A DNA stretch of 64,000 bases from Candidatus Sysuimicrobiota bacterium (lineage in GTDB: Bacteria > Sysuimicrobiota > Sysuimicrobiia > Sysuimicrobiales > Sysuimicrobiaceae), in assembly GCA_040289515.1 (NCBI GenBank), contig PSLI01000002.1, forward strand, positions 20,014 through 84,013, in the 5' to 3' direction. The translations under genes were made by a program, and so were the position numbers. Numbering within the stretch: position 1 is the first letter of the stretch; each line of letters opens with the position of its first letter. Of the stretch, positions 1,939 to 52,906 are shown piece after piece. A model generated the notes under the pieces. The model saw only the letters and a program-made list of their open reading frames with translations, was not told the origin of the DNA and searched no databases.

Positions 1939-3704
1939 GGGAGCCCGAGAACGCCACGTATGCCTTCTGCGCGGCCCTGATGGACGAGCTGTGGCGGTGC
2001 GGGGTGCAGGAGGTGTGCCTGTGCCCGGGCTCCCGCTCCGCTCCCCTTGCCCTCAGCGCCCTGCGCCACGCCGGCCTGCGCACGTGGACGTTGCTGGACG
2101 AACGTAGCGCCGGCTACTTCGCCACGGGCATGGCGCGGGCCTCCGGGCGTCCCGTGGCGATGCTGACCACCTCGGGCACCGCGGCCGCGAACCTGATGCC
2201 CGCGGTGGTGGAGGCGTACTACGCGGGGGTGCCCCTCGTGGTGCTGACCGCGGACCGCCCCCCCGAGCGGCGCGATTTCGGGGCGTTGCAGACCATCAAC
2301 CAAGTGCGGCTTTTCGGCAGGCACGTAAAGTGGTGCGCGGATCTTCCCCTGCCGGAAGCGGACGAGGCCGCCCTCCGGTTCGCACGCAGCCTCGCCTGCC
2401 GGGCGGTGTTCGAAGCGTGCGCACCCCCGCGCGGGCCGGTGCACCTGAACGTCCCCCTGCGGGAGCCGCTGGTGCCGGTGCACCAGGCGCGGCCCCGGGT
2501 TTGTCCGGAGGCCGAGCAGGGCCGACCTTCGGCCCCGTACACAGCATGGACGGTGGCAGACCCACAGCCCGCGCCACAGCAGCTGGACGAGCTCCTGGGA
2601 CACCTGCGGGAAGCCGACCGGGGCGTGGTGGTGTGCGGACCCCTGGACCGGCCGGACTTCCCGGAAGCGGTCTGTGGGCTGGCCCGTGTTCTGTCGTACC
2701 CCATCCTAGCGGACGCCCTGTCGCAGGTGCGGGCCGGAGCGCACGACCGTTCGGCGGTGGTGTCGGCGCACGAAGCGCTCCTGCGGGTTGGGTGGGTGGC
2801 CTCGGAGCTGAGGCCCGAGGTGGTGCTGCGGTTCGGCGCTACCCCCACGTCCCGCACGCTGCAGGCGTACCTGGCCTCGCACCCGGAGGCCTTCCAGGTG
2901 GTGGTCCACGGGGGTGGGGATTGGCCAGACCCGGACCACACCGCCCACCAGGTGGTCTGGGCGGACCCTGTGGCCTTCTGTCGGTGGGTGCGTTCCGTGC
3001 TAGCACCCCGCGCGCACACGGCCTGGTGGCGGAGTTGGCAACGCCTGGGAGCTGCCGCCGCGGCCGCGCTGGAGCGCTTTCTGGAGTCTGTGGAGGAACC
3101 CTTCGAGGGCCGCGTGTTCTGGGAGCTGGCGCAGCTGCTGCCCGACCCCTGCGTGCTGTTCGTGGGCAACAGCATGCCCGTGCGGGACCTGGACGCCTTC
3201 TTCCCGTGCAGCGGGCGGCGGGTGCGGATGCTGGCGAACCGGGGCGCGAGCGGCATCGACGGGGTCCCCAGTACCGCCCTGGGCGTGGCCGCATCCAGCC
3301 GGGAACCTGTGGTGCTGGTGGTGGGAGACGTCTCCTTCTACCACGACCTCAACGGCCTGCTGGCGGCGTGGCGGTTTGGCCTGGACCTGCTGGTGATCCT
3401 CCTGCACAACGACGGCGGAGGGATCTTCTCCTTCCTGCCGCAGGCGGAGTACCCCGAGGGGTTCGAGGAGCTGTTCGGTACACCCCACGGGCTGGACTTT
3501 CGGCCGGCGGTGGAGATGTTCGGCGGACATTACCGCCGGGTGAAGGACTGGCCCGAGTTCCGCCAGGCCGTGCGGGAAGGGTTGCAGCAGGGCGGCCTGC
3601 GGGTGGTGGAAGTCCGCACCGACCGGCGCCGCAACGTGGAGCTGCACCGACAGGCCTGGCAGGCGGTTCGCGAAGCGGCCGAACAAGCTTGCGAGGGGAG
3701 GTGA
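1935..3704 (+). CDS. menD: 2-succinyl-5-enolpyruvyl-6-hydroxy-3-cyclohexene-1-carboxylate synthase (ThDP-dependent)
   Basis: N-terminus reads [21 protein letters not shown]...[33 protein letters not shown], as in MenD. The GTG start overlaps the menF stop (GTGA). The long upstream extension of the track ORF (from 1530) is rejected. Confidence 0.9.
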
Positions 3705-3708
3705 CAGC

Positions 3709-4539
3709 ATGCACATCGTGTGGCGCCGCGTGGGGGACTACACGGACATCCTGTACGAGCACGGGGCGGAGGACGCGGCGGGCATCGCCAAGATCACCAT
3801 CAACCGGCCGGAGGTGCGTAACGCTTTCCGGCCTGAGACGGTCATGGAGATGATCGACGCCTTCAGCCACGCCCGGGACGACGCCTCCATCGGGGTGGTG
3901 CTGCTCACCGGGGCAGGCGGAGAGGCCTTCTGCTCGGGCGGAGACCAGCGGGTGCGGGGGCACGGAGGCTACGTGGGGCAGGATCGCATCCCGCGGCTCA
4001 ATGTGCTGGACCTCCAGCGGCTCATCCGGGTGATCCCCAAGCCCGTCATCGCCTTGGTGGCGGGCTACGCCATCGGCGGCGGGAACGTGCTGGCGACCGT
4101 GTGCGACCTCACCCTCGCGGCGGAGAACGCCATCTTCGGCCAGACAGGCCCCCGCGTCGGCAGCTTCGACGCGGGGTACGGGTCCACGTACCTCGCCCGC
4201 ATCGTGGGGCACAAGAAGGCCCGGGAGATCTGGTACTTGTGCCGGCAGTACACGGCCCAGCAGGCCCTGGAGATGGGGCTGGTGAACGCGGTGGTCCCCC
4301 TGGAGCGGCTGGAGGAGGAGGGCGTGCGCTGGGCCCGGGAGATCCTGGAGAAAAGCCCCCTGGCCATCCGGCTGCTGAAGGCGGCCTTCAACGCGGACAC
4401 GGACGGGCTGGCGGGGCTCCAGCAGCTGGGAGGGGATGCCACCCTGCTGTACTACCTCACGGACGAGGCGAAGGAGGGCCGGGATGCGTTCTTGGAGAAG
4501 CGCAAGCCCGACTTCTCCAAGTTCCCCCGCTTCCCATAA
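3709..4539 (+). CDS. menB: 1,4-dihydroxy-2-naphthoyl-CoA synthase (crotonase fold)
   Basis: Near-canonical MenB sequence ([37 protein letters not shown]). GGAGG RBS is present. Confidence 0.95.
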
Positions 4540-14533: not shown

Positions 14534-15627
14534 CGCACGACGTGGTGGTGGCGGGGGCCTCCTTCGCGGGCCTGGCGGTCGTCCAGGCGGTGCAGGGCCG
14601 CGCCTTGGTAGTGGATCCGCGGCCCCTGGGAGAAGGGCAGACCTCCGCCTGCGGTGCTCCCCTGTCCGTGGTGGAGCGCGCGGGCGCCGCAGGGGCCGTG
14701 CAGCAGGTGCACCGCTTGCTGGTGCTGCACACCCGACGCCGGACGTTCGTGTGGGAGCTGCAGGAGCCGTTCTGCACCTTCGACTACCGGGCCTTCTGCC
14801 GTCTGGCGTGGCAGCGGGTCCAGGCGGAGCTGGTATCAGCGCAGGCGCGGTCTTTCGACGGCACCTGGGTGCACACCTCCGCGGGCCGGTTCGGCGCGGA
14901 GGTGGCGGTGGACTGCACGGGCTGGAGAGCGCGCCTGGCGGGTTCTGCACCTGGGGCCGAACGGCGACGCGGGGCTCGTTGGAAGTGGTTCGGGATCGAG
15001 ACGGAAATCCCGGCGGCCTTCGAGTCGGGCCTGCACTTCTACTTTTGGCCGGAGCTGGTCGAGGACGGTTATGCGTGGGCGTTCCCGTGCGGGGAGGTGG
15101 TGCGGTTCGGGGTGCTGTCGTACCGCGGCCGCACCCGGCTGCAGGATCCCCTGCACCGATTCCTGGCTTACTTCGCGGTGCAGCCCCGTGGCTACCACGG
15201 GGGTTTCCTGGGCGTGGGACCTGGCTGGCCGGGGGAGGGCCGGCTGTTCGTGGTGGGCGACAGCGGCGGCCACTGCCTGCCCCTCACGGGCGAGGGCATC
15301 CGGTCCAGTCTCCACGCGGGGTGGCTGGTGGGCGGCTTGGTAAGCGAGGTCCTGGCAGGGCGCATCAGCCTGCAGGAGGCGCACCGGCGCTACCGCCAGT
15401 ACCTCCGGGCCCAGGGCCCCACGGTGGCTTTCCTCGCGGCGGCCACGGGGGTCTTTGCGCGTTTGCCGCCTGCCTTGCTGGAGCGGGTGGTCGCCGCCTG
15501 CTCCATCCCGGCCGTGCGACGCGCCTTCCTGCGGCACTACCTGGCCACTTTTCCTCCCGGTGAGGTCTGCCACCACCCCGCCGCGGGCACCGGGCAGCAT
15601 CCCGGGCGCGTAATGCCTTCCCGGTGA
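14530..15627 (+). CDS. FAD-dependent oxidoreductase, geranylgeranyl reductase family
   Basis: N-terminal VVVAGASFAGLA dinucleotide-binding fold. Later motif GDSGGHCLPLTGEGI matches the GGR-type GDAAG..P.tGeGI. GTGA overlap with the upstream gene. Confidence 0.6.
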   Translation: MTHDVVVAGASFAGLAVVQAVQGRALVVDPRPLGEGQTSACGAPLSVVERAGAAGAVQQVHRLLVLHTRRRTFVWELQEPFCTFDYRAFCRLAWQRVQAELVSAQARSFDGTWVHTSAGRFGAEVAVDCTGWRARLAGSAPGAERRRGARWKWFGIETEIPAAFESGLHFYFWPELVEDGYAWAFPCGEVVRFGVLSYRGRTRLQDPLHRFLAYFAVQPRGYHGGFLGVGPGWPGEGRLFVVGDSGGHCLPLTGEGIRSSLHAGWLVGGLVSEVLAGRISLQEAHRRYRQYLRAQGPTVAFLAAATGVFARLPPALLERVVAACSIPAVRRAFLRHYLATFPPGEVCHHPAAGTGQHPGRVMPSR

Positions 15628-15660
15628 GTGGTACCCTGTTGGGTGTACGGAGTTTACTAG

Positions 15661-15747
15661 GCCGGAGTGGCGGAACCGGCAGACGCGCCGGACTCAAAAT
15701 CCGGTGGGCGCCAGCCCGTGTGGGTTCGAGTCCCACCTCCGGCACCA
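15661..15747 (+). tRNA. tRNA-Leu (anticodon CAA), class II with long variable arm, CCA encoded
   Basis: Acceptor GCCGGAG/CTCCGGC. Anticodon stem CCGGA/TCCGG with loop CTCAAAA. T-loop GGTTCGAGTCC. Ends ACCA. Confidence 0.9.
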
Positions 15748-15822
15748 GGGCGGATAGCTCAGCGGGAGAGCACGTCCCTTACAAGGACGGGGTCGCAGGT
15801 TCGACTCCTGCTCCGCCCACCA
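15748..15822 (+). tRNA. tRNA-Val (anticodon TAC), CCA encoded
   Basis: GGGCGGATAGCTCAGCGGGAGAGCACGTCCCTTACAAGGACGGGGTCGCAGGTTCGACTCCTGCTCCGCCCACCA, very similar to E. coli tRNA-Val(UAC). It abuts tRNA-Leu directly. Confidence 0.9.
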
Positions 15823-45548: not shown

Positions 45549-45578
45549 CCCCCTTTGCCTGGCGGTGGTACTTTTTCA
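45540..45578 (+). terminator. weak intrinsic terminator after rpsA (GCCAG...CTGGC stem, then CTTTTT)
   Basis: Short hairpin followed by a T5 run. No other T-tracts occur nearby. Confidence 0.3.
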
Positions 45579-45581
45579 GTG

Positions 45582-45659
45582 CGGGGCGTGGCGCAGCTTG
45601 GCTAGCGCGCAGCGTTCGGGACGCTGAGGTCGGCGGTTCAAATCCGCCCGCCCCGACCA
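45582..45659 (+). tRNA. tRNA-Pro (anticodon CGG), CCA encoded
   Basis: Acceptor CGGGGCG/CGCCCCG. D-stem GCGC. Anticodon stem CAGCG/CGCTG with loop TTCGGGA. T-arm GGCGG-TTCAAAT-CCGCC. Confidence 0.85.
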
Positions 45660-45831: not shown

Positions 45832-45862
45832 TTGACAGGCACGGGCCGCCCCGCGGACTATG
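45832..45862 (+). promoter_or_regulatory. promoter of the thi operon (TTGACA-18-GACTAT)
   Basis: Perfect -35 hexamer, 18 nt spacer, and a -10-like hexamer just upstream of the TPP aptamer. Confidence 0.5.
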
Positions 45863-45869
45863 AAGCTGG

Positions 45870-45965
45870 AAGCGCACGGGGTGGTCGGCGGGAAACCGTC
45901 GGCCTGAGACAACACCCGTTGAACCTGATCCGGGTAATGCCGGCGGAGGGAATGCGCAGGACGTC
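45870..45965 (+). promoter_or_regulatory. TPP (THI-box) riboswitch
   Basis: GGGGTG...CTGAGA...ACCCGTTGAACCTGATCCGGGTAATGCCGGCGGAGGGA matches the THI-element consensus. It lies upstream of thiO-thiS-thiG-thiE. Confidence 0.85.
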
Positions 45966-46062
45966 TCCAGCGGATCCCCCGCAGCCCTGACTTCTTGAGC
46001 TTCCCTTCTGCGGGCAGGCGGCGCGATTGCGCTCCGGTTCGGGTTGCGCGAAGAGGTACCGT

Positions 46063-47178: not shown

Positions 47179-48192
<1,014 letters not shown>

Positions 48193-48195
48193 GAG

Positions 48196-48861
48196 GTGTT
48201 GTTGGCACAGACGCAGCCGGCGTGCCCCACCACAGGCGGCACCGTTGAGGTGCCGCGACTGCTGGTGGTGGCGGACGTGGACGGCGCGGGCGGCCCGGTG
48301 GCCTGGGAAGGCGTGCTGCTGCGGCTGGCCGGGCTTCCCCCGGGGCTGCAAGTGGCCGTGCAGGTGAGGGCCAAGGGCCGCCCGCCGGCGGAGCTGCGGC
48401 AGCTTGGGGCGAAGGCGCGGGAGCTGCTAGCGGATCGCGTCCCCGTGGTGCTCAATGGGCCGCCCGCGGTGGCCTGTACCCTCCGTTTGGCGGGCGTGCA
48501 CTGGCCGGAAGCGGAGATTCCCAGCGCGGTACCCCGGGAGGCAGAAGGGCTGCTGCGGTCTGCGAGCGTGCACGGTCTTGTTGCGGTGCGCAGGGCGCAG
48601 CGCGTTGCCCACTACGTGCTGTTCGGGCCTGTGTTTGAGCCAAGGTCTAAGCCAGGTACCGGCGCCGGCGTGGAGGCCCTGCGGCAGGCCTGCGCTGCCA
48701 GCCGCCTGCCCGTGCTGGCCATCGGCGGGGTGACCGCGGAACGGGTACCCCTGTGCGTGCAGGCCGGCGCGGCGGGCGTGGCGGTGGTGTCCGCGGTGGT
48801 ACGGGCCGCAGACCCGGCGCGGGAGGTGCTGCGGCTGCTGGACGCTCTACCGGGAGGGTGA
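48196..48861 (+). CDS. thiE: thiamine-phosphate synthase ThiE (divergent)
   Basis: LFGPVFEPRSKPGTGAG...LAIGGV fits the ThiE C-terminal motifs. AGGAGG RBS. Confidence 0.7.
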   Translation: MLLAQTQPACPTTGGTVEVPRLLVVADVDGAGGPVAWEGVLLRLAGLPPGLQVAVQVRAKGRPPAELRQLGAKARELLADRVPVVLNGPPAVACTLRLAGVHWPEAEIPSAVPREAEGLLRSASVHGLVAVRRAQRVAHYVLFGPVFEPRSKPGTGAGVEALRQACAASRLPVLAIGGVTAERVPLCVQAGAAGVAVVSAVVRAADPAREVLRLLDALPGG

Positions 48862-48920
48862 CCGGGGTCTGCCTTCCAGCCCTGCAGGGGTCCGAGCGCC
48901 TGGCGGGGAACACCATCCCG

Positions 48921-49613
48921 ATGGATCTGCGGGAAGCACTGTGGACCCTCCACCTCCTGGATGTGGCCATCGGCGAGCGGCAGGGGGCCGCGGATGCCCT
49001 CGCCACCGACACGGGTACCGCCGCACGGCTGGCTGAGCTGCGGGAACGGTTGGAGTCCCTGCGCGCCCGCGCACGGCAGGTGCGTTCCTGCCAGCAAGCC
49101 GCGGAGCTGCAGCTGCAGTCTCTTCGGGAAAAACGGCAACGCCTAGAACGTGAGCTGTACAGCGGGCGGTTGAGCCCGCGGGAGCTGGTGAACCTGCAGC
49201 GGGAGCTGGACGCCTTGGCGCGCCAGTACGCGGAACTGGAGAGCTGGATCCTCGGGCAGATGGAGGAGGCGGAATCTGTGGAGCGGGAGCTGGAAGACCT
49301 GGACCGGGAGCTGCAGCGCCTGGAAGCCGTGTACCGGGAAGCCGTGGAGGACCAGGCGGCGCGGTCCAGGGCCCTGCAGGTGGAGCTACAGACCCTGCGG
49401 CAGCGCAGGGGGGCGCAGGTGGCTTGCATGGATCCGCAGCTGGTGCAGCAGTACGAACGACTACGCCAGCGGCTCCACCCCCCGGTGGCCAAACTGGTGG
49501 GGAAGGCCTGCGGGGGCTGTCACGTAAGCCTGGCCCGCGCCTTCCGGGAGCGGCTGATCTCCGCGCCCGTACCTCTCGCCTGCCCCGCGTGCGGGCGGTT
49601 GCTGGTGCCGTGA
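48921..49613 (+). CDS. COG1579-type coiled-coil protein with C-terminal C4 zinc ribbon
   Basis: Long coiled-coil, then CGGCHVSL...CPACGRLL. It sits upstream of rnhA, as in mycobacterial synteny. Confidence 0.75.
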   Translation: MDLREALWTLHLLDVAIGERQGAADALATDTGTAARLAELRERLESLRARARQVRSCQQAAELQLQSLREKRQRLERELYSGRLSPRELVNLQRELDALARQYAELESWILGQMEEAESVERELEDLDRELQRLEAVYREAVEDQAARSRALQVELQTLRQRRGAQVACMDPQLVQQYERLRQRLHPPVAKLVGKACGGCHVSLARAFRERLISAPVPLACPACGRLLVP

Positions 49614-50242
49614 AGGTGGTGGTGCGTCCCGATGGCGCCTGCCGGGGAAACCCGGGGCCGGCGGGGATCGGGGTGGTGCTGGAGGACGCCTCGGGCCGCG
49701 TCTTGCGGGAGGTGTCTGAGGCCATCGGTCCGGCCACCAACAACGTGGCGGAGTACCGAGCTTTGCTGCGGGGTCTGGAGGAGGCGCGCCGACTGGGCGC
49801 TCGTGAGGTGGAGGTCCGCACCGATAGCCAGCTGGTGGCCCGCCAGCTCCTGGGCCGCTACCGGGTACGGGATCCGGAGCTCAAGAGTTTGTTCGACTCC
49901 GCGCAGAAATCCCTGCAGGCCTTCCAGCGGGTGGTGGTGCGGAGCGTGCCGCGGTCGGAGAACGCAAGGGCGGATCAGCTGGCCAGGCGCGCCGTGGCTA
50001 CTCCGGACCCTGTGGAGGCCTTGGTGCAGGCCGCGCGTGCGGGCCGGGCAGAAGAGGCCGTCGCTCTTTTGCGGCGGCTCTCGGGGGAGGCGGTGCGAGA
50101 GGCTGCGGAGAAGCTGGCGAGAGAGCTAGCGACCCTCCCCCTTCCCAACCGTGGGAAAATAGAAGCGGGAGCGGGCCGGGCGGCCGCGCCGCCCGAGGGC
50201 GGTGAGGAAAGTCCGGGCTCCACAGGGCAGGGTGGTGGGTAA
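49610..50242 (+). CDS. rnhA: ribonuclease HI (C-terminal tail overlaps the rnpB 5' region)
   Basis: DGACRGNPGPAGIGVV, EYRALL, TDSQ and ENARADQLA are catalytic DEDD-type motifs. The last ~80 codons are low complexity. Confidence 0.8.
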   Translation: MKVVVRPDGACRGNPGPAGIGVVLEDASGRVLREVSEAIGPATNNVAEYRALLRGLEEARRLGAREVEVRTDSQLVARQLLGRYRVRDPELKSLFDSAQKSLQAFQRVVVRSVPRSENARADQLARRAVATPDPVEALVQAARAGRAEEAVALLRRLSGEAVREAAEKLARELATLPLPNRGKIEAGAGRAAAPPEGGEESPGSTGQGGG

Positions 50243-50532
50243 CGCCCACCCGGGGTGACCCGAGGGAAAGTGCCACAGAAACATACCGCCGGCCCCGCGA
50301 GGGGACGGTAAGGGTGAAAAGGTGCGGTAAGAGCGCACCGGCGGTGTGGTGACACGCCGGCCAGGCAAACCCCACCCGGAGCAAGGCCGAGTAGGGGGAG
50401 ATGAGGTGGCCCGCCGATCCCCGGGTAGGCCGCTAGAGGCCTCCGGCAACGGAGGTCCCAGAGAGATGGCCGCCACACCGGGGTTCGCCTCGGTGTACAG
50501 AACCCGGCTTACAGGCCCGCTCCCGCCCGGAA
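50163..50532 (+). ncRNA. rnpB: RNase P RNA (bacterial type A)
   Basis: GAGGAAAGTCCGGGCTCCACAGGGCA is the P4 5' strand. GGTAAGGGTGAAAAGGTGCGGTAAGAGCGCACC and ACAGAACCCGGCTTA are also present. P1 pairs GGGAGCGGGCC with GGCCCGCTCCC. Roughly 370 nt. Confidence 0.85.
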
Positions 50533-50577
50533 CGTAGAGGTGGAGGGCACAGGGCCCCAACTCCGGTGGGTGCGAGG

Positions 50578-50838
50578 ATGACCTGCCCGTATTGCAACAG
50601 CGAGAACGTGGTCTGTAACGTCACCATCCGCTGGAACCAGGTGCGAGGAGTTTTCGTGCCACGCCGCGGCCACTACTGCACCACCTGCGGGAAGTCCTTC
50701 GAGCCGACCCCCGAGGATGGGCTGACCCTGGGGTCGGTGGTCCTGGAGGAGATCACCCCAGCCATCCGCAAGCTGCAGGAAAGCGGAGACGTGATCGTTA
50801 TCCGGCACCGGGACGGCGTCCACGAGGTCGTGTACTAG
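50578..50838 (+). CDS. hypothetical C4 zinc-ribbon protein
   Basis: CPYCN...CTTCG. 86 aa. Confidence 0.5.
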   Translation: MTCPYCNSENVVCNVTIRWNQVRGVFVPRRGHYCTTCGKSFEPTPEDGLTLGSVVLEEITPAIRKLQESGDVIVIRHRDGVHEVVY

Positions 50839-50844
50839 CCGCAG

Positions 50845-50866
50845 GCCCACCGCGGTCCGGGTGGGC
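50845..50866 (+). terminator. hairpin GCCCACC-N8-GGTGGGC after the zinc-ribbon gene
   Basis: 7 bp perfect stem. No U-tract follows (TTCCCGCC). Confidence 0.3.
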
Positions 50867-50969
50867 TTCCCGCCATGGTACCTGGTACCGTCTGGACTGG
50901 CGGGCACCGCCGACAGCGCTTGGTGAAGCCGGGCAGGGCCCACGCGCAGCCACCCCCCCCAACCCCCCT

Positions 50970-51398
50970 TTGATGGCGCAGGTGGTGGTGGATCGCCGGG
51001 AGGCGCGGTCAGGCGTCCCGGAGCGGCTGCGGGCCCTCGGGGTGGAAGTGGTGAAGGCCCCCCTGCCCGTGGGCGACTACGTGCCGAGCCCGCGGCTGCG
51101 CCGGGCCTTCCTGCGCCCTCTGTACGTGATCGATGGCAAACGTGTGTACGGACTGCGGCAGGTACACCCCAACTGCGCCCGGGCAGGGCTTGCGATCCTT
51201 CCGGTGACGTACGGCATCCCCACCGTGTTCACGGAGGACGCGGAGGACACCGCCGCGTTTCTGCTGCTGGTGGCGCGGCGGGAGCAGTGGGGACAGGAGG
51301 TCCGCGAGGAGGAGCTGGCGCAGGTCCCGGGCATCGGCAGGGTGTTGGCCCGTCGGATCCGGGAGGCCATGGCGGGCGCCCCCGGCCGGGAAGAGTAG
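50970..51398 (+). CDS. ERCC4 (XPF/Mus81)-like nuclease-fold protein with C-terminal helix-hairpin-helix
   Basis: VVVDRRE...PVGDYV resembles the ERCC4 core. The ERK motif is not evident. C-terminal LAQVPGIGRVLARRIREAM is HhH-like. Low-confidence family call. Confidence 0.4.
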   Translation: MMAQVVVDRREARSGVPERLRALGVEVVKAPLPVGDYVPSPRLRRAFLRPLYVIDGKRVYGLRQVHPNCARAGLAILPVTYGIPTVFTEDAEDTAAFLLLVARREQWGQEVREEELAQVPGIGRVLARRIREAMAGAPGREE

Positions 51399-51415
51399 AT
51401 CGCCCCGCGAGGCCG

Positions 51416-52906
51416 TCAGCGGACCAGGGTGATCCGGCCCTCCACCCGGGGGCTGATGGTTCGCATTTTCTGGATGGCCTCCATGACCGCGTTGGCCATG
51501 ATGGGGCCGTCCACGGGCGACACCAGCACCCGGCCGCCGGCCAGCATGGCGTAGCCGTCCCCGCCGCGCAGCAGGAAGTCGTTGGTGGCGACCGTGTAGG
51601 TGGCTGCGTCGTCCAACGGCCGGTCGCCCACCCGGACGTCCAGGATGCGGGAGCCCGCAGGCCGGGTGGGGTTGAAGGTGTAGCGGAGCCCTGACACCTG
51701 CGGGAAGCGACCCGCTACCTGCTCCCACTGGCTCACGCCGTTCTCCAGGGCCTGACGGATCACCGCCCCGCGCAGTTCCACCTTCACGACCACGTTCCCG
51801 AAGGGCAGCCAGGCCAGGACGTCCTTGCGTGTGATGCGGCCCGCGGGGAACAGGGCGTTGGTGCGGATGCCACCCCCGTTGGTGATGGCCACGTCGGCTC
51901 CCACCGCGGCCCGCATGACGTCCGCGATGAAGTTCCCGAGGTTAGACTCCTGCTGACGGACGGTGGTATTGCGGGCGTCCAGGGGGACCGTGGTCTCGCC
52001 GATGACCACCTCCAGCTCCCGGCTGAGGGCCTGCGCGTAGCGCTCCACCAGCTTGGCCATCTCGGGATCCCGGGGCACCCGTTCGTCCACCGGGACCAGT
52101 TCGTGCTGAGCCCTGCGGGAACCGTCCAGAGCTAGACGCGTCACCCCCAGCCACTTCACGTCCGAGCCCGCCTTCGCCACCAGCCGGCCGTCCACGGTGG
52201 CGGTGAGCGGGTCGTGCTCGTGCCCGCCGATCACCAGGTCCACCTCCGGCACCTGCCGGAGGAGCTGCTGATCCTCGGACACGCTGAGGTGCGTAAGGGC
52301 CACGATGACCCGGGCCCCGCGGGCGCGGAGGATGCGGACCACTTCCCGGGCGACGGCGATCACGTTGCCGAAGGTGGTGTTGCCTGGGCTGGACAGCACC
52401 GCGGTTTCCTCCGTGAGCAGGCCCACCACGCCCACGGGGACTCCCTCCGGGGAGAGGACCAGCCACGGCTTCACGCCGGGAAAGGGGCGCAGCCCAGGGG
52501 CGAACACGTTGCTCACCACCCACGGGAAGCGGGACTCCCGCACGCGCCGAGCGAGCTCCTCCGGCCCGTAGTCGAACTCGTGGTTGCCGAAGGTGGCGGC
52601 GTCCACGCCCAGCTGGTTGAGGCCCTCAATCATCTGGGCCCCCTTAAACACGGAGGACTCCACCGAAGGGGAGATGAGGTCCCCCGCGAACAGGAGAAGC
52701 TTCGGCCCCTTCTGGGCCCGGTAGCGCTTCACCACGGTGGCGAACCGGTCGAACCCGCCCAGCTTGCCCCCGTCCGTGGGGCCCAGCTGGTAGACGTCGT
52801 TGAAGTGCAGGATCGTGAGGACCGGCGGCCGGCCGGAGCCAGTCCCTGCGGCCAGGAGCGCCAGTACGAGGGCGAAGCCAACCAGCTGGATCTTACGGGT
52901 CGTCAT
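51416..52906 (-). CDS. secreted bifunctional metallophosphatase / 5'-nucleotidase (UshA family)
   Basis: Signal peptide. GDLISPS and GNHEFD in the metallophosphatase domain. C-terminal 5'-nucleotidase domain. RBS GGGGGAGGG. Confidence 0.85.
   Translation of the reverse strand: MTTRKIQLVGFALVLALLAAGTGSGRPPVLTILHFNDVYQLGPTDGGKLGGFDRFATVVKRYRAQKGPKLLLFAGDLISPSVESSVFKGAQMIEGLNQLGVDAATFGNHEFDYGPEELARRVRESRFPWVVSNVFAPGLRPFPGVKPWLVLSPEGVPVGVVGLLTEETAVLSSPGNTTFGNVIAVAREVVRILRARGARVIVALTHLSVSEDQQLLRQVPEVDLVIGGHEHDPLTATVDGRLVAKAGSDVKWLGVTRLALDGSRRAQHELVPVDERVPRDPEMAKLVERYAQALSRELEVVIGETTVPLDARNTTVRQQESNLGNFIADVMRAAVGADVAITNGGGIRTNALFPAGRITRKDVLAWLPFGNVVVKVELRGAVIRQALENGVSQWEQVAGRFPQVSGLRYTFNPTRPAGSRILDVRVGDRPLDDAATYTVATNDFLLRGGDGYAMLAGGRVLVSPVDGPIMANAVMEAIQKMRTISPRVEGRITLVR

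Follow-up and report, generated by a model that had tools for sequence, protein, structure and literature searches.

How does the reading frame of a protein-coding gene come to end inside the gene of a ribozyme, and does that ending matter? The question is raised by a stretch of 64,000 nucleotides (nt) from Candidatus Sysuimicrobiota bacterium (contig PSLI01000002.1), referred to here as the window, which has a G+C content of 71% and in which the open reading frame (ORF) of an RNase H gene, rnhA, runs into rnpB, the gene for RNase P RNA, on the same strand. A sequence-only reading of the locus had left two alternatives: a genuine overlap, with co-transcription and processing of RNase P RNA out of an mRNA, or a true rnhA stop further upstream that was lost to an indel. 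The answer that probably holds is that the promoter of rnpB is embedded in the rnhA frame and that the tail of the ORF is a neutral overrun. No description of an rnhA/rnpB overlap was found in the literature searched on the overlap and on rnpB context.

Both gene boundaries were read directly. A cmscan search with the Rfam covariance model RNaseP_bact_a (RF00010; gathering score 100 bits) placed a bacterial class-A RNase P RNA at 50168–50527 of the forward strand, with a score of 296.7 bits, an E value of 4.7e-96, and an untruncated match to model positions 1–367 of 367. Both universal stretches, GAGGAAAGUCCGG and ACAGAACCCGGCUUA, are present, and helix P1 pairs 50168–50177 with 50514–50523, closing the 5′ and 3′ ends; helix names follow class-A nomenclature throughout. 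By score, full-length match, universal stretches, and P1, the sequence is that of a class-A RNase P RNA gene. The 5′ end may lie at 50165, because P1 can be extended by three pairs to 50165/50526. Pairing up to 3–4 bp upstream of Rfam position 1 is possible in 6 of 9 relatives, with some two-sided changes, and positions −2 and −3 are paired in 5–6 of the 9 sequences, which are too few and too closely related to choose between 50165 and 50168. The earlier estimate of about 50163 for the start of rnpB was thus close, but the covariance search gives 50168, well short of the boundary downstream of 50242 that would have removed the overlap altogether.

The rnhA-like ORF (49610–50242, forward strand) consists of 210 codons and a TAA, and homologues at 70–80% identity share its length and its tail. 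The RNase H frame is open from 49424; its likely start is the GTG at 49610, which shares bases with the TGA that closes the upstream gene (GTGA), and its first in-frame stop is the TAA at 50240–50242. According to the Rfam alignment and the stop map, this TAA corresponds in rnpB to the UAA of the P8 hairpin loop (GGUGGGUAACGCCCACC). The two genes therefore share 75 nt (50168–50242, forward strand), or 24 codons plus the stop, and would share 78 nt if P1 extends to 50165. The sequence-only reading was right that rnpB begins inside the 3′ end of the ORF, that no stop occurs before 50240–50242, and that the last ~25 codons (24 and the stop) are rnpB read as protein. It underestimated how far the overlap reaches, having named P1, P2, P3, and part of P4: on the Rfam structure line, the shared segment takes in P3 completely, P1 and P2 by their 5′ strands, and the universal GAGGAAAGUCCGG stretch with the 5′ strands behind it, and its end falls in the loop of the hairpin formed by GGUGGGUAACGCCCACC.

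Such a long open frame calls for no special cause. At random positions and in any frame of the window, 77% of 25-codon stretches and 70% of 36-codon stretches are free of stops, so the overrun past the folded RNase H domain is no more than expected by chance. A sequencing or assembly indel that removed a real stop or shifted the frame is hardly credible as the origin of the overlap. In its favor, the linker after the last helix of the protein is prone to indels, and the sequences come from metagenome assemblies. However, proteins of 210 residues, listed at 100% identity in the search table, are encoded on four ENA contigs and in a JGI assembly, which makes an assembly error unlikely because these assemblies are independent. 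The same frame and tail also occur in relatives from different samples and sources (L088, L081/L082, L089, L090, L093, and L099), and the protein search found the same tail in nine further 90%-identity clusters. The stop state of the window is real and inherited, not a sequencing error.

To see where the functional protein ends, its domains, predicted structure, and substitution pattern were compared. Residues 3–129 (49616–49996, forward strand) form a type-1 RNase H catalytic domain, recognized by the Pfam families RVT_3 (1.1e-24; 87.1 bits against a cut-off of 21.6) and RNase_H (1.9e-11; 44.8 bits against a cut-off of 25.8). The Pfam match spans residues 3–128 of 210 and leaves ~81 codons, in line with the ~85 codons that had been estimated between the end of the catalytic domain and the stop. 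Among 22 sequences, Glu-48, Asp-72, and Asp-122 are invariant and Asp-8 is nearly so; these are presumably the acidic catalytic residues (Asp, Glu, Asp, Asp) of the family. In an AlphaFold model built on 22 homologues, the domain has a predicted local distance difference test (pLDDT) score >95, and in a fold search it matched the structures 3hst, 4e19, and 3u3g with E values of 1e-16 to 1e-15 and root mean square deviations (rmsd) of 0.8–1.5. The superposition on 3hst gives an rmsd of about 1.0 over 130 columns at 49–50% identity, and archaeal-type RNases H1 also superpose on the domain.

Behind the catalytic domain lies a clade-specific extension of three helices (residues 134–143, 147–155, and 159–174; 50009–50131, forward strand), predicted with pLDDT block means of 82–92 over residues 131–170 and 78 over residues 171–180. 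This extension is kept in relatives wherever the stop lies, apart from one (L092) in which it is deleted. It had no match among solved structures in the fold search, all hits of which align only with the ~130-residue RNase H domain. On the model, the fold is complete by about residue 174 (nt ~50131). The remainder (residues 175–210 and the stop; 50132–50242, forward strand) appears to be an unconstrained tail read from promoter and rnpB DNA. It includes the peptide GKIEAGAGRAAAPPEGGEESPGSTGQGGG, and residues 182–210 have pLDDT <50 and are predicted to be disordered. The description of everything after the catalytic domain as a low-complexity tail does not hold for residues 134–174, which form three confident, conserved helices.

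The ratio of nonsynonymous to synonymous differences per site (pN/pS), calculated by the Nei–Gojobori method from codon alignments, rises along the ORF in the same order. It is 0.32–0.36 in the RNase H domain, which is thus under purifying selection, and 0.59–0.65 in the helical extension, where third-position changes are in excess. Across residues 175–186 it reaches about 1.0–1.5 with a low pS, a pattern that points to conservation of the DNA and not of the protein. In the overlap (residues 187–210), pS is 0.066 and pN 0.024 among sequences that share the frame, changes too few to inform pN/pS; this scarcity of substitutions is best read as conservation at the DNA level. The few changes that do occur, all in the P3 loop, are amino acid replacements (Glu/Ala and Pro/Ser). 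No protein-level constraint on the overlapping codons was seen, as the tail DNA is read in all three frames among relatives. The ORF tail is very probably a neutral by-product.

The comparison of close relatives bears most directly on the status of the overlap. Homologues of 57–80% identity that carry the extension were collected by protein search and their DNA was fetched, and 11 were compared. Where such neighbors carry a name, they are metagenome-assembled genomes labelled Armatimonadota (P0018) or Bacillota/Firmicutes (one member of the P0004 cluster). A pattern scan of metagenome DNA returned 8 stretches, of which L094, L098, and L099 alone gave new data; three others duplicated contigs of the set, and L095 and L096 were chance matches inside unrelated coding sequence and were set aside. 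The gene order common to the relatives is thiS-thiG-thiE, a CT398-type zinc-ribbon gene, rnhA, rnpB, an ORF of 86 amino acids (aa), mraZ, and rsmH. Wherever the contig of a close relative reaches far enough downstream, Rfam places rnpB right after rnhA; the contig of L093 ends too soon for an Rfam match but carries the rnpB P4 motif.

The rnhA stop was observed at five different positions among these 11 relatives. The same-frame 75-nt overlap is found in the window, L088, L081/L082, L089, L090, and L099, in L093 by its tail protein only, and also in the proteins P0005, P0007, P0010, and P0012. Where 1 nt is deleted (L084/L085 and L094, and P0015 by its tail protein), the overlap is 40 nt and the stop is the TGA of GGUGAGG. 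In the remaining relatives, the ORF ends before rnpB: 13 nt upstream in L083, L091, and L098, at a TGA within CGTGAGAAAAT; 5 nt upstream in L092, the relative that has lost the helical extension, at a TAG in AAAATAGAA; and 67 nt upstream in L086. In an alignment of the region (A2), the linker right after the last helix varies in length, and its indels determine the frame. The stop states are interspersed on a neighbor-joining tree of the flanking genes and rnpB; of two sisters that are only 8% apart and differ by a 2-nt indel, L083 stops upstream and L089 has the 75-nt overlap. Because relatives stop at five positions and sisters differ, the overlap is not conserved. On this sequence comparison, it represents no conserved functional design but an evolutionarily unstable by-product of a very GC-rich genome.

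These data cut across both of the alternatives from which the analysis set out. The overlap is genuine, being common to at least 10 protein clusters at 70–80% identity, and read-through into rnpB is likely, with no terminator-like site found; however, the overlap is not conserved (the five relatives L083, L091, L098, L092, and L086 stop upstream of P1, an outcome that the sequence-only reading had itself named as refuting), and processing from an mRNA is not required given the putative extended −10 element that ends 8 nt upstream of rnpB. As for a stop lost to an indel, linker indels do switch the frame, as between L083 and L089, but there is no single "true" stop, and the ORF ends wherever the conserved promoter/rnpB DNA happens to present a stop in its frame.

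A selected overlap would require either that the tail is functional or that RnhA synthesis and the production of RNase P RNA are linked through a stop inside rnpB, as might happen if a cut at the rnpB 5′ end left a non-stop rnhA mRNA for transfer-messenger RNA (tmRNA). Three observations can be cited in its favor. The 75-nt state is present in at least 10 protein clusters at 70–80% identity, rnhA–rnpB adjacency is old and widespread, and it follows directly from the sequence that normally terminated RnhA in the window needs an mRNA holding at least 75 nt of rnpB. The idea is nevertheless largely refuted by the close relatives that stop upstream or in another frame and by the differing sister taxa. 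The pN/pS of about 1 or more across residues 175–186, the amino acid changes in the free P3 loop, the predicted disorder of the tail, and the lack of any overlap in 17 distant loci with the same gene pair count against it as well, and we consider it very unlikely.

If the tail DNA is not conserved for its protein, what is it conserved for? Upstream of rnpB, a predicted extended −10 element, TGgGAAAAT, lies at 50152–50160 of the forward strand, with the TG at 50152–50153 and the hexamer at 50155–50160; it ends 8 nt before Rfam position 1. Across 11 sequences, A50156 and T50160, positions 2 and 6 of the hexamer, are invariant, and the TG is invariant or nearly so. In alignment A2, the surrounding CCCTTCCCAGGCGTGnGAAAAT, which includes CGTGnGAAAAT, stays conserved whichever of the three frames the individual sequences use. 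The outgroup L086 has no TG and instead carries a perfect TATAAT, 2 nt further upstream. We infer that a separate promoter for rnpB lies in the 3′-terminal part of the rnhA frame, a reading that the pattern of invariant bases makes probable, and transcription is predicted to start at about 50165–50168.

More distant loci carry a comparable signal. A set of 80 RNase H loci at 40–57% identity (L001–L080) was taken from a collection of species-representative genomes, and all counts for this set are among the matches listed. A full class-A rnpB lies on the same strand within 2.5 kb downstream in 17 of the 80, across many phyla and next to RNases H of the RVT_3 type (for example L074, 2501–3328; L045, 2501–3266; L062, 2501–4099; and L029, 2501–3385). 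The distance from the rnhA stop to rnpB is 6, 11, 15, 16, 27, 31, 52, 73 nt and upward, and none of the 17 overlaps. A TANNNT hexamer ends 5–14 nt upstream of rnpB in 14 of these 17 loci, against 1.07 expected from the loci's own background. In the Corynebacterium locus L062, the TAG stop of rnhA is itself the first half of a TAGAAT.

Upstream of the predicted −10 element is a CCTTCCC box (50140–50146, forward strand), conserved as DNA in 9 of 11 relatives. TTCCCA (50142–50147) was considered as a −35 box and rejected, since it stands only 7 nt from the −10 hexamer and no conserved −35-like hexamer is found 17 nt upstream. The pattern TTCCC-N(4–8)-TGNNANNNT occurs only twice in the 64 kb, at 15618–15637 before a tRNA-Leu gene (15661) and at 50142–50160 before rnpB. 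The CCTTCCC box itself is also found before tRNA-Leu (15616–15622), and a variant is found before tRNA-Pro (45582), which is preceded by CCTTTGCC-N6-TGGTACTTT, a close variant of the rnpB layout. All three genes share a CCTTCCC/CCTTTGCC box, 5–6 nt, a TGg, and a TAnnnT/GAAAAT hexamer (15616–15637, 45552–45574, and 50140–50160). At these three stable-RNA genes the box precedes the −10 hexamer by ~7–9 nt, unlike a normal −35 element.

Several points weigh against an embedded promoter. A promoter and terminator scan with a generic sigma-70 description reported no promoter in 48000–51500; it needs both hexamers and is blind to a promoter with an extended −10 element only. No −35 box is recognizable upstream of rnpB, the 7-nt spacer leaves the CCTTCCC box too close to the hexamer to serve as one, and the common motif of the three RNA genes was drawn up with the sites already in view. 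The P1 extension, if real, would leave only 4–5 nt between the −10 hexamer and the 5′ end, a short distance for a transcription start and one more in keeping with processing. Finally, the scan of 48000–51500 reported no terminator-like site between or after rnhA and rnpB; read-through transcripts therefore probably contain rnpB, and co-transcription probably contributes to its expression.

Taken to its extreme, this last point becomes an account in which rnpB has no promoter of its own and is co-transcribed with the thi, zinc-ribbon, and rnhA genes and cut out of the mRNA. The conserved A/U-rich patch GAAAAUAGAA would then be an endonuclease site of the RNase E/G or RNase Y type that defines the rnpB 5′ end. 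Such an arrangement would suit the gene order: beginning at a thiamine pyrophosphate (TPP) riboswitch (45867), every gene has the same orientation and either overlaps its neighbor or follows it closely, no terminator-like site was seen in 48000–51500, and rnhA–rnpB gaps are just 5–30 nt in many lineages; P1 may reach 50165, near the A-rich patch, and no −35 box can be recognized. A processing site would not explain, however, why the invariant bases are exactly the TG, A(2), and T(6) of a −10 element or why L086 has a perfect TATAAT. The TGg-TAnnnT layout also precedes two tRNA genes in intergenic DNA, and the TANNNT hexamer keeps its distance in 14 of 17 distant loci, some of them with gaps of 645–1000 nt (L037, L039, L066, and L032), in which other DNA precedes rnpB. 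In Escherichia coli, moreover, the 5′ end of rnpB RNA is the transcription start, the end of the primary transcript. Processing as the sole source of the 5′ end is therefore unlikely.

With an embedded promoter, the locus can be described as follows. The rnhA and rnpB genes would be functionally adjacent, and it is the ORF, not the functional protein, that would overlap the RNA gene. DNA after about 50131 would be conserved for RNA-level reasons, first as promoter (the CCTTCCC box and TGnGAAAAT) and then as rnpB. In this very GC-rich lineage, rnhA has no stop codon of its own, and translation would end at any stop triplet that the frame happens to meet in the conserved promoter/rnpB DNA, with small indels in the linker after the last helix setting the frame of entry. 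In the frame of the window, the first stop is the UAA of the P8 loop, which would add ~36 disordered, unselected residues, 24 of them from rnpB. The bulk of RNase P RNA would probably be primary transcript started at the rnpB promoter. Read-through transcripts from the thi, zinc-ribbon, and rnhA genes would also enter rnpB, and full-length RnhA would be obtainable only from these.

Upstream of rnhA, a gene for a CT398/DUF164-like coiled-coil protein with a C4 zinc ribbon occupies 48921–49613 of the forward strand (Pfam CT398_CC, 1.1e-15, and Zn_ribbon_9; TGA at 49611–49613). Its ORF opens mechanically at 48753, and the ATG at 48921 was chosen from the 232-aa homologues in relatives. A CT398-type zinc-ribbon homologue lies directly upstream of rnhA in 24 of the 80 distant loci. 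The zinc-ribbon–rnhA–rnpB unit spans the lineage of the window, Actinomycetota, Chloroflexota, Omnitrophota, and deltaproteobacterial metagenome-assembled genomes, and it has the look of an old three-gene neighborhood. These distributions indicate that rnhA–rnpB adjacency is old and widespread and that the overlap is a local accident of it. DUF164 (FlgZ-like) zinc-ribbon genes have been reported to pair with rnhA in several phyla, and in Borrelia burgdorferi the RNase P RNA gene lies downstream of the flgZ homologue (Pereira et al., 2011; PMC3372290). The order of zinc-ribbon gene and RNase H gene is as in the window, but the RNase P RNA gene is treated there as a single case, whereas here rnpB follows in 17 of the 80 distant loci and in all close relatives, often within 5–30 nt.

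This tight unit could be taken as a sign of functional coupling, with the 3′ end of rnhA mRNA as one source of mature RNase P RNA, a suggestion that we regard as decidedly doubtful. If it were true, then with the stop inside rnpB a cut at the 5′ end would make a non-stop rnhA mRNA, and RnhA output would come to depend, via tmRNA rescue, on how RNase P RNA is processed. The overlap, not being conserved, cannot be what such a coupling rests on.

A close known relative of the protein is Rv2228c of Mycobacterium tuberculosis (PDB 3hst), in which an N-terminal RNase H domain is fused to a CobC-type phosphatase. The likeness lies in the catalytic domain, and its actinobacterial homologues share with the window the upstream zinc-ribbon gene and the downstream rnpB. 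The window protein has no phosphatase domain and carries the three-helix extension in its place. The best NCBIfam profile is PRK07238, aligned over residues 1–146. Membership in the bifunctional RNase H/acid phosphatase family (NF005567) was rejected, with a score of 150.8 bits against a cut-off of 326 and a match to the N-terminal part of the profile only (positions 2–148 of 378).

Other features of the neighborhood were recorded in passing. Between rnpB and mraZ, an 86-aa ORF with two CxxC pairs (MTCPYCNSEN...CTTCGK; 50578–50838) scored above the cut-off of no Pfam or NCBIfam family. It has the same length and place in most close relatives, is 75 aa in L086, and was called as 113 aa in L084/L085. 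In L084 the 113-aa call (3370–3711) overlaps the last 60 nt of rnpB (3073–3429); it is probably the 86-aa ORF with its start placed too far upstream, and thus another spurious overlap of a coding sequence with rnpB. The TPP riboswitch (45867–45969; 69.4 bits) is preceded by TTGACA-18 nt-GACTAT (region 45832–45969) and stands at the head of the thi genes; the zinc-ribbon gene, rnhA, and rnpB follow these on the same strand, with no recognizable terminator in between. At tRNA-Pro, the predicted −10 hexamer TACTTT (45569–45574) ends 7 nt before the mature 5′ end at 45582 assigned by ARAGORN; the primary transcript might have a leader of 0–2 nt and need little or no RNase P cleavage. The tRNA-Leu gene (15661–15747), with an encoded CCA end, abuts tRNA-Val (15748–15822) with zero spacer.

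Promoters of RNAs inside an upstream ORF have precedents among non-coding RNAs: that of DapZ lies just before the dapB stop, that of MicL lies inside cutC, and MicX is a further case (PMC9438474). The window would match this pattern, with the predicted promoter of the downstream RNA placed in the last part of the frame before it; the RNA and the 3′ end of that mRNA have sequence or orientation in common, and both primary and read-through transcripts are possible. The differences are that the RNA is a housekeeping ribozyme and not an Hfq-type regulator, that the ORF enters the structured RNA by 75 nt instead of ending before it, and that the embedded part of the ORF does not appear to be functional coding sequence; use of the promoter is deduced here from its sequence. 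With E. coli rnpB and other class-A genes of RF00010, the gene shares a full-length, high-scoring RNA, the universal stretches, and a putative −10 box just upstream; it differs from class-A RNase P RNA genes in that its first 75 nt also lie inside a protein-coding frame.

For annotation, the locus suggests that in very GC-rich genomes a frame can cross a promoter and go deep into the gene of a structured RNA while the two genes stay functionally separate. The last 36 residues of the window RNase H should not be read as meaningful protein sequence, and protein databases hold at least 10 clusters with tails that are rnpB read as protein. It is also a clean example of a stop codon supplied by neighboring constrained DNA, in which single indels shift the stop by up to 90 nt between sister lineages. 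Possibly more useful than the overlap itself are the widespread, tight synteny of rnhA and rnpB, together with the zinc-ribbon gene, and the extended −10 layout with its CCTTCCC box, which may be shared by stable-RNA genes of this uncultured lineage.

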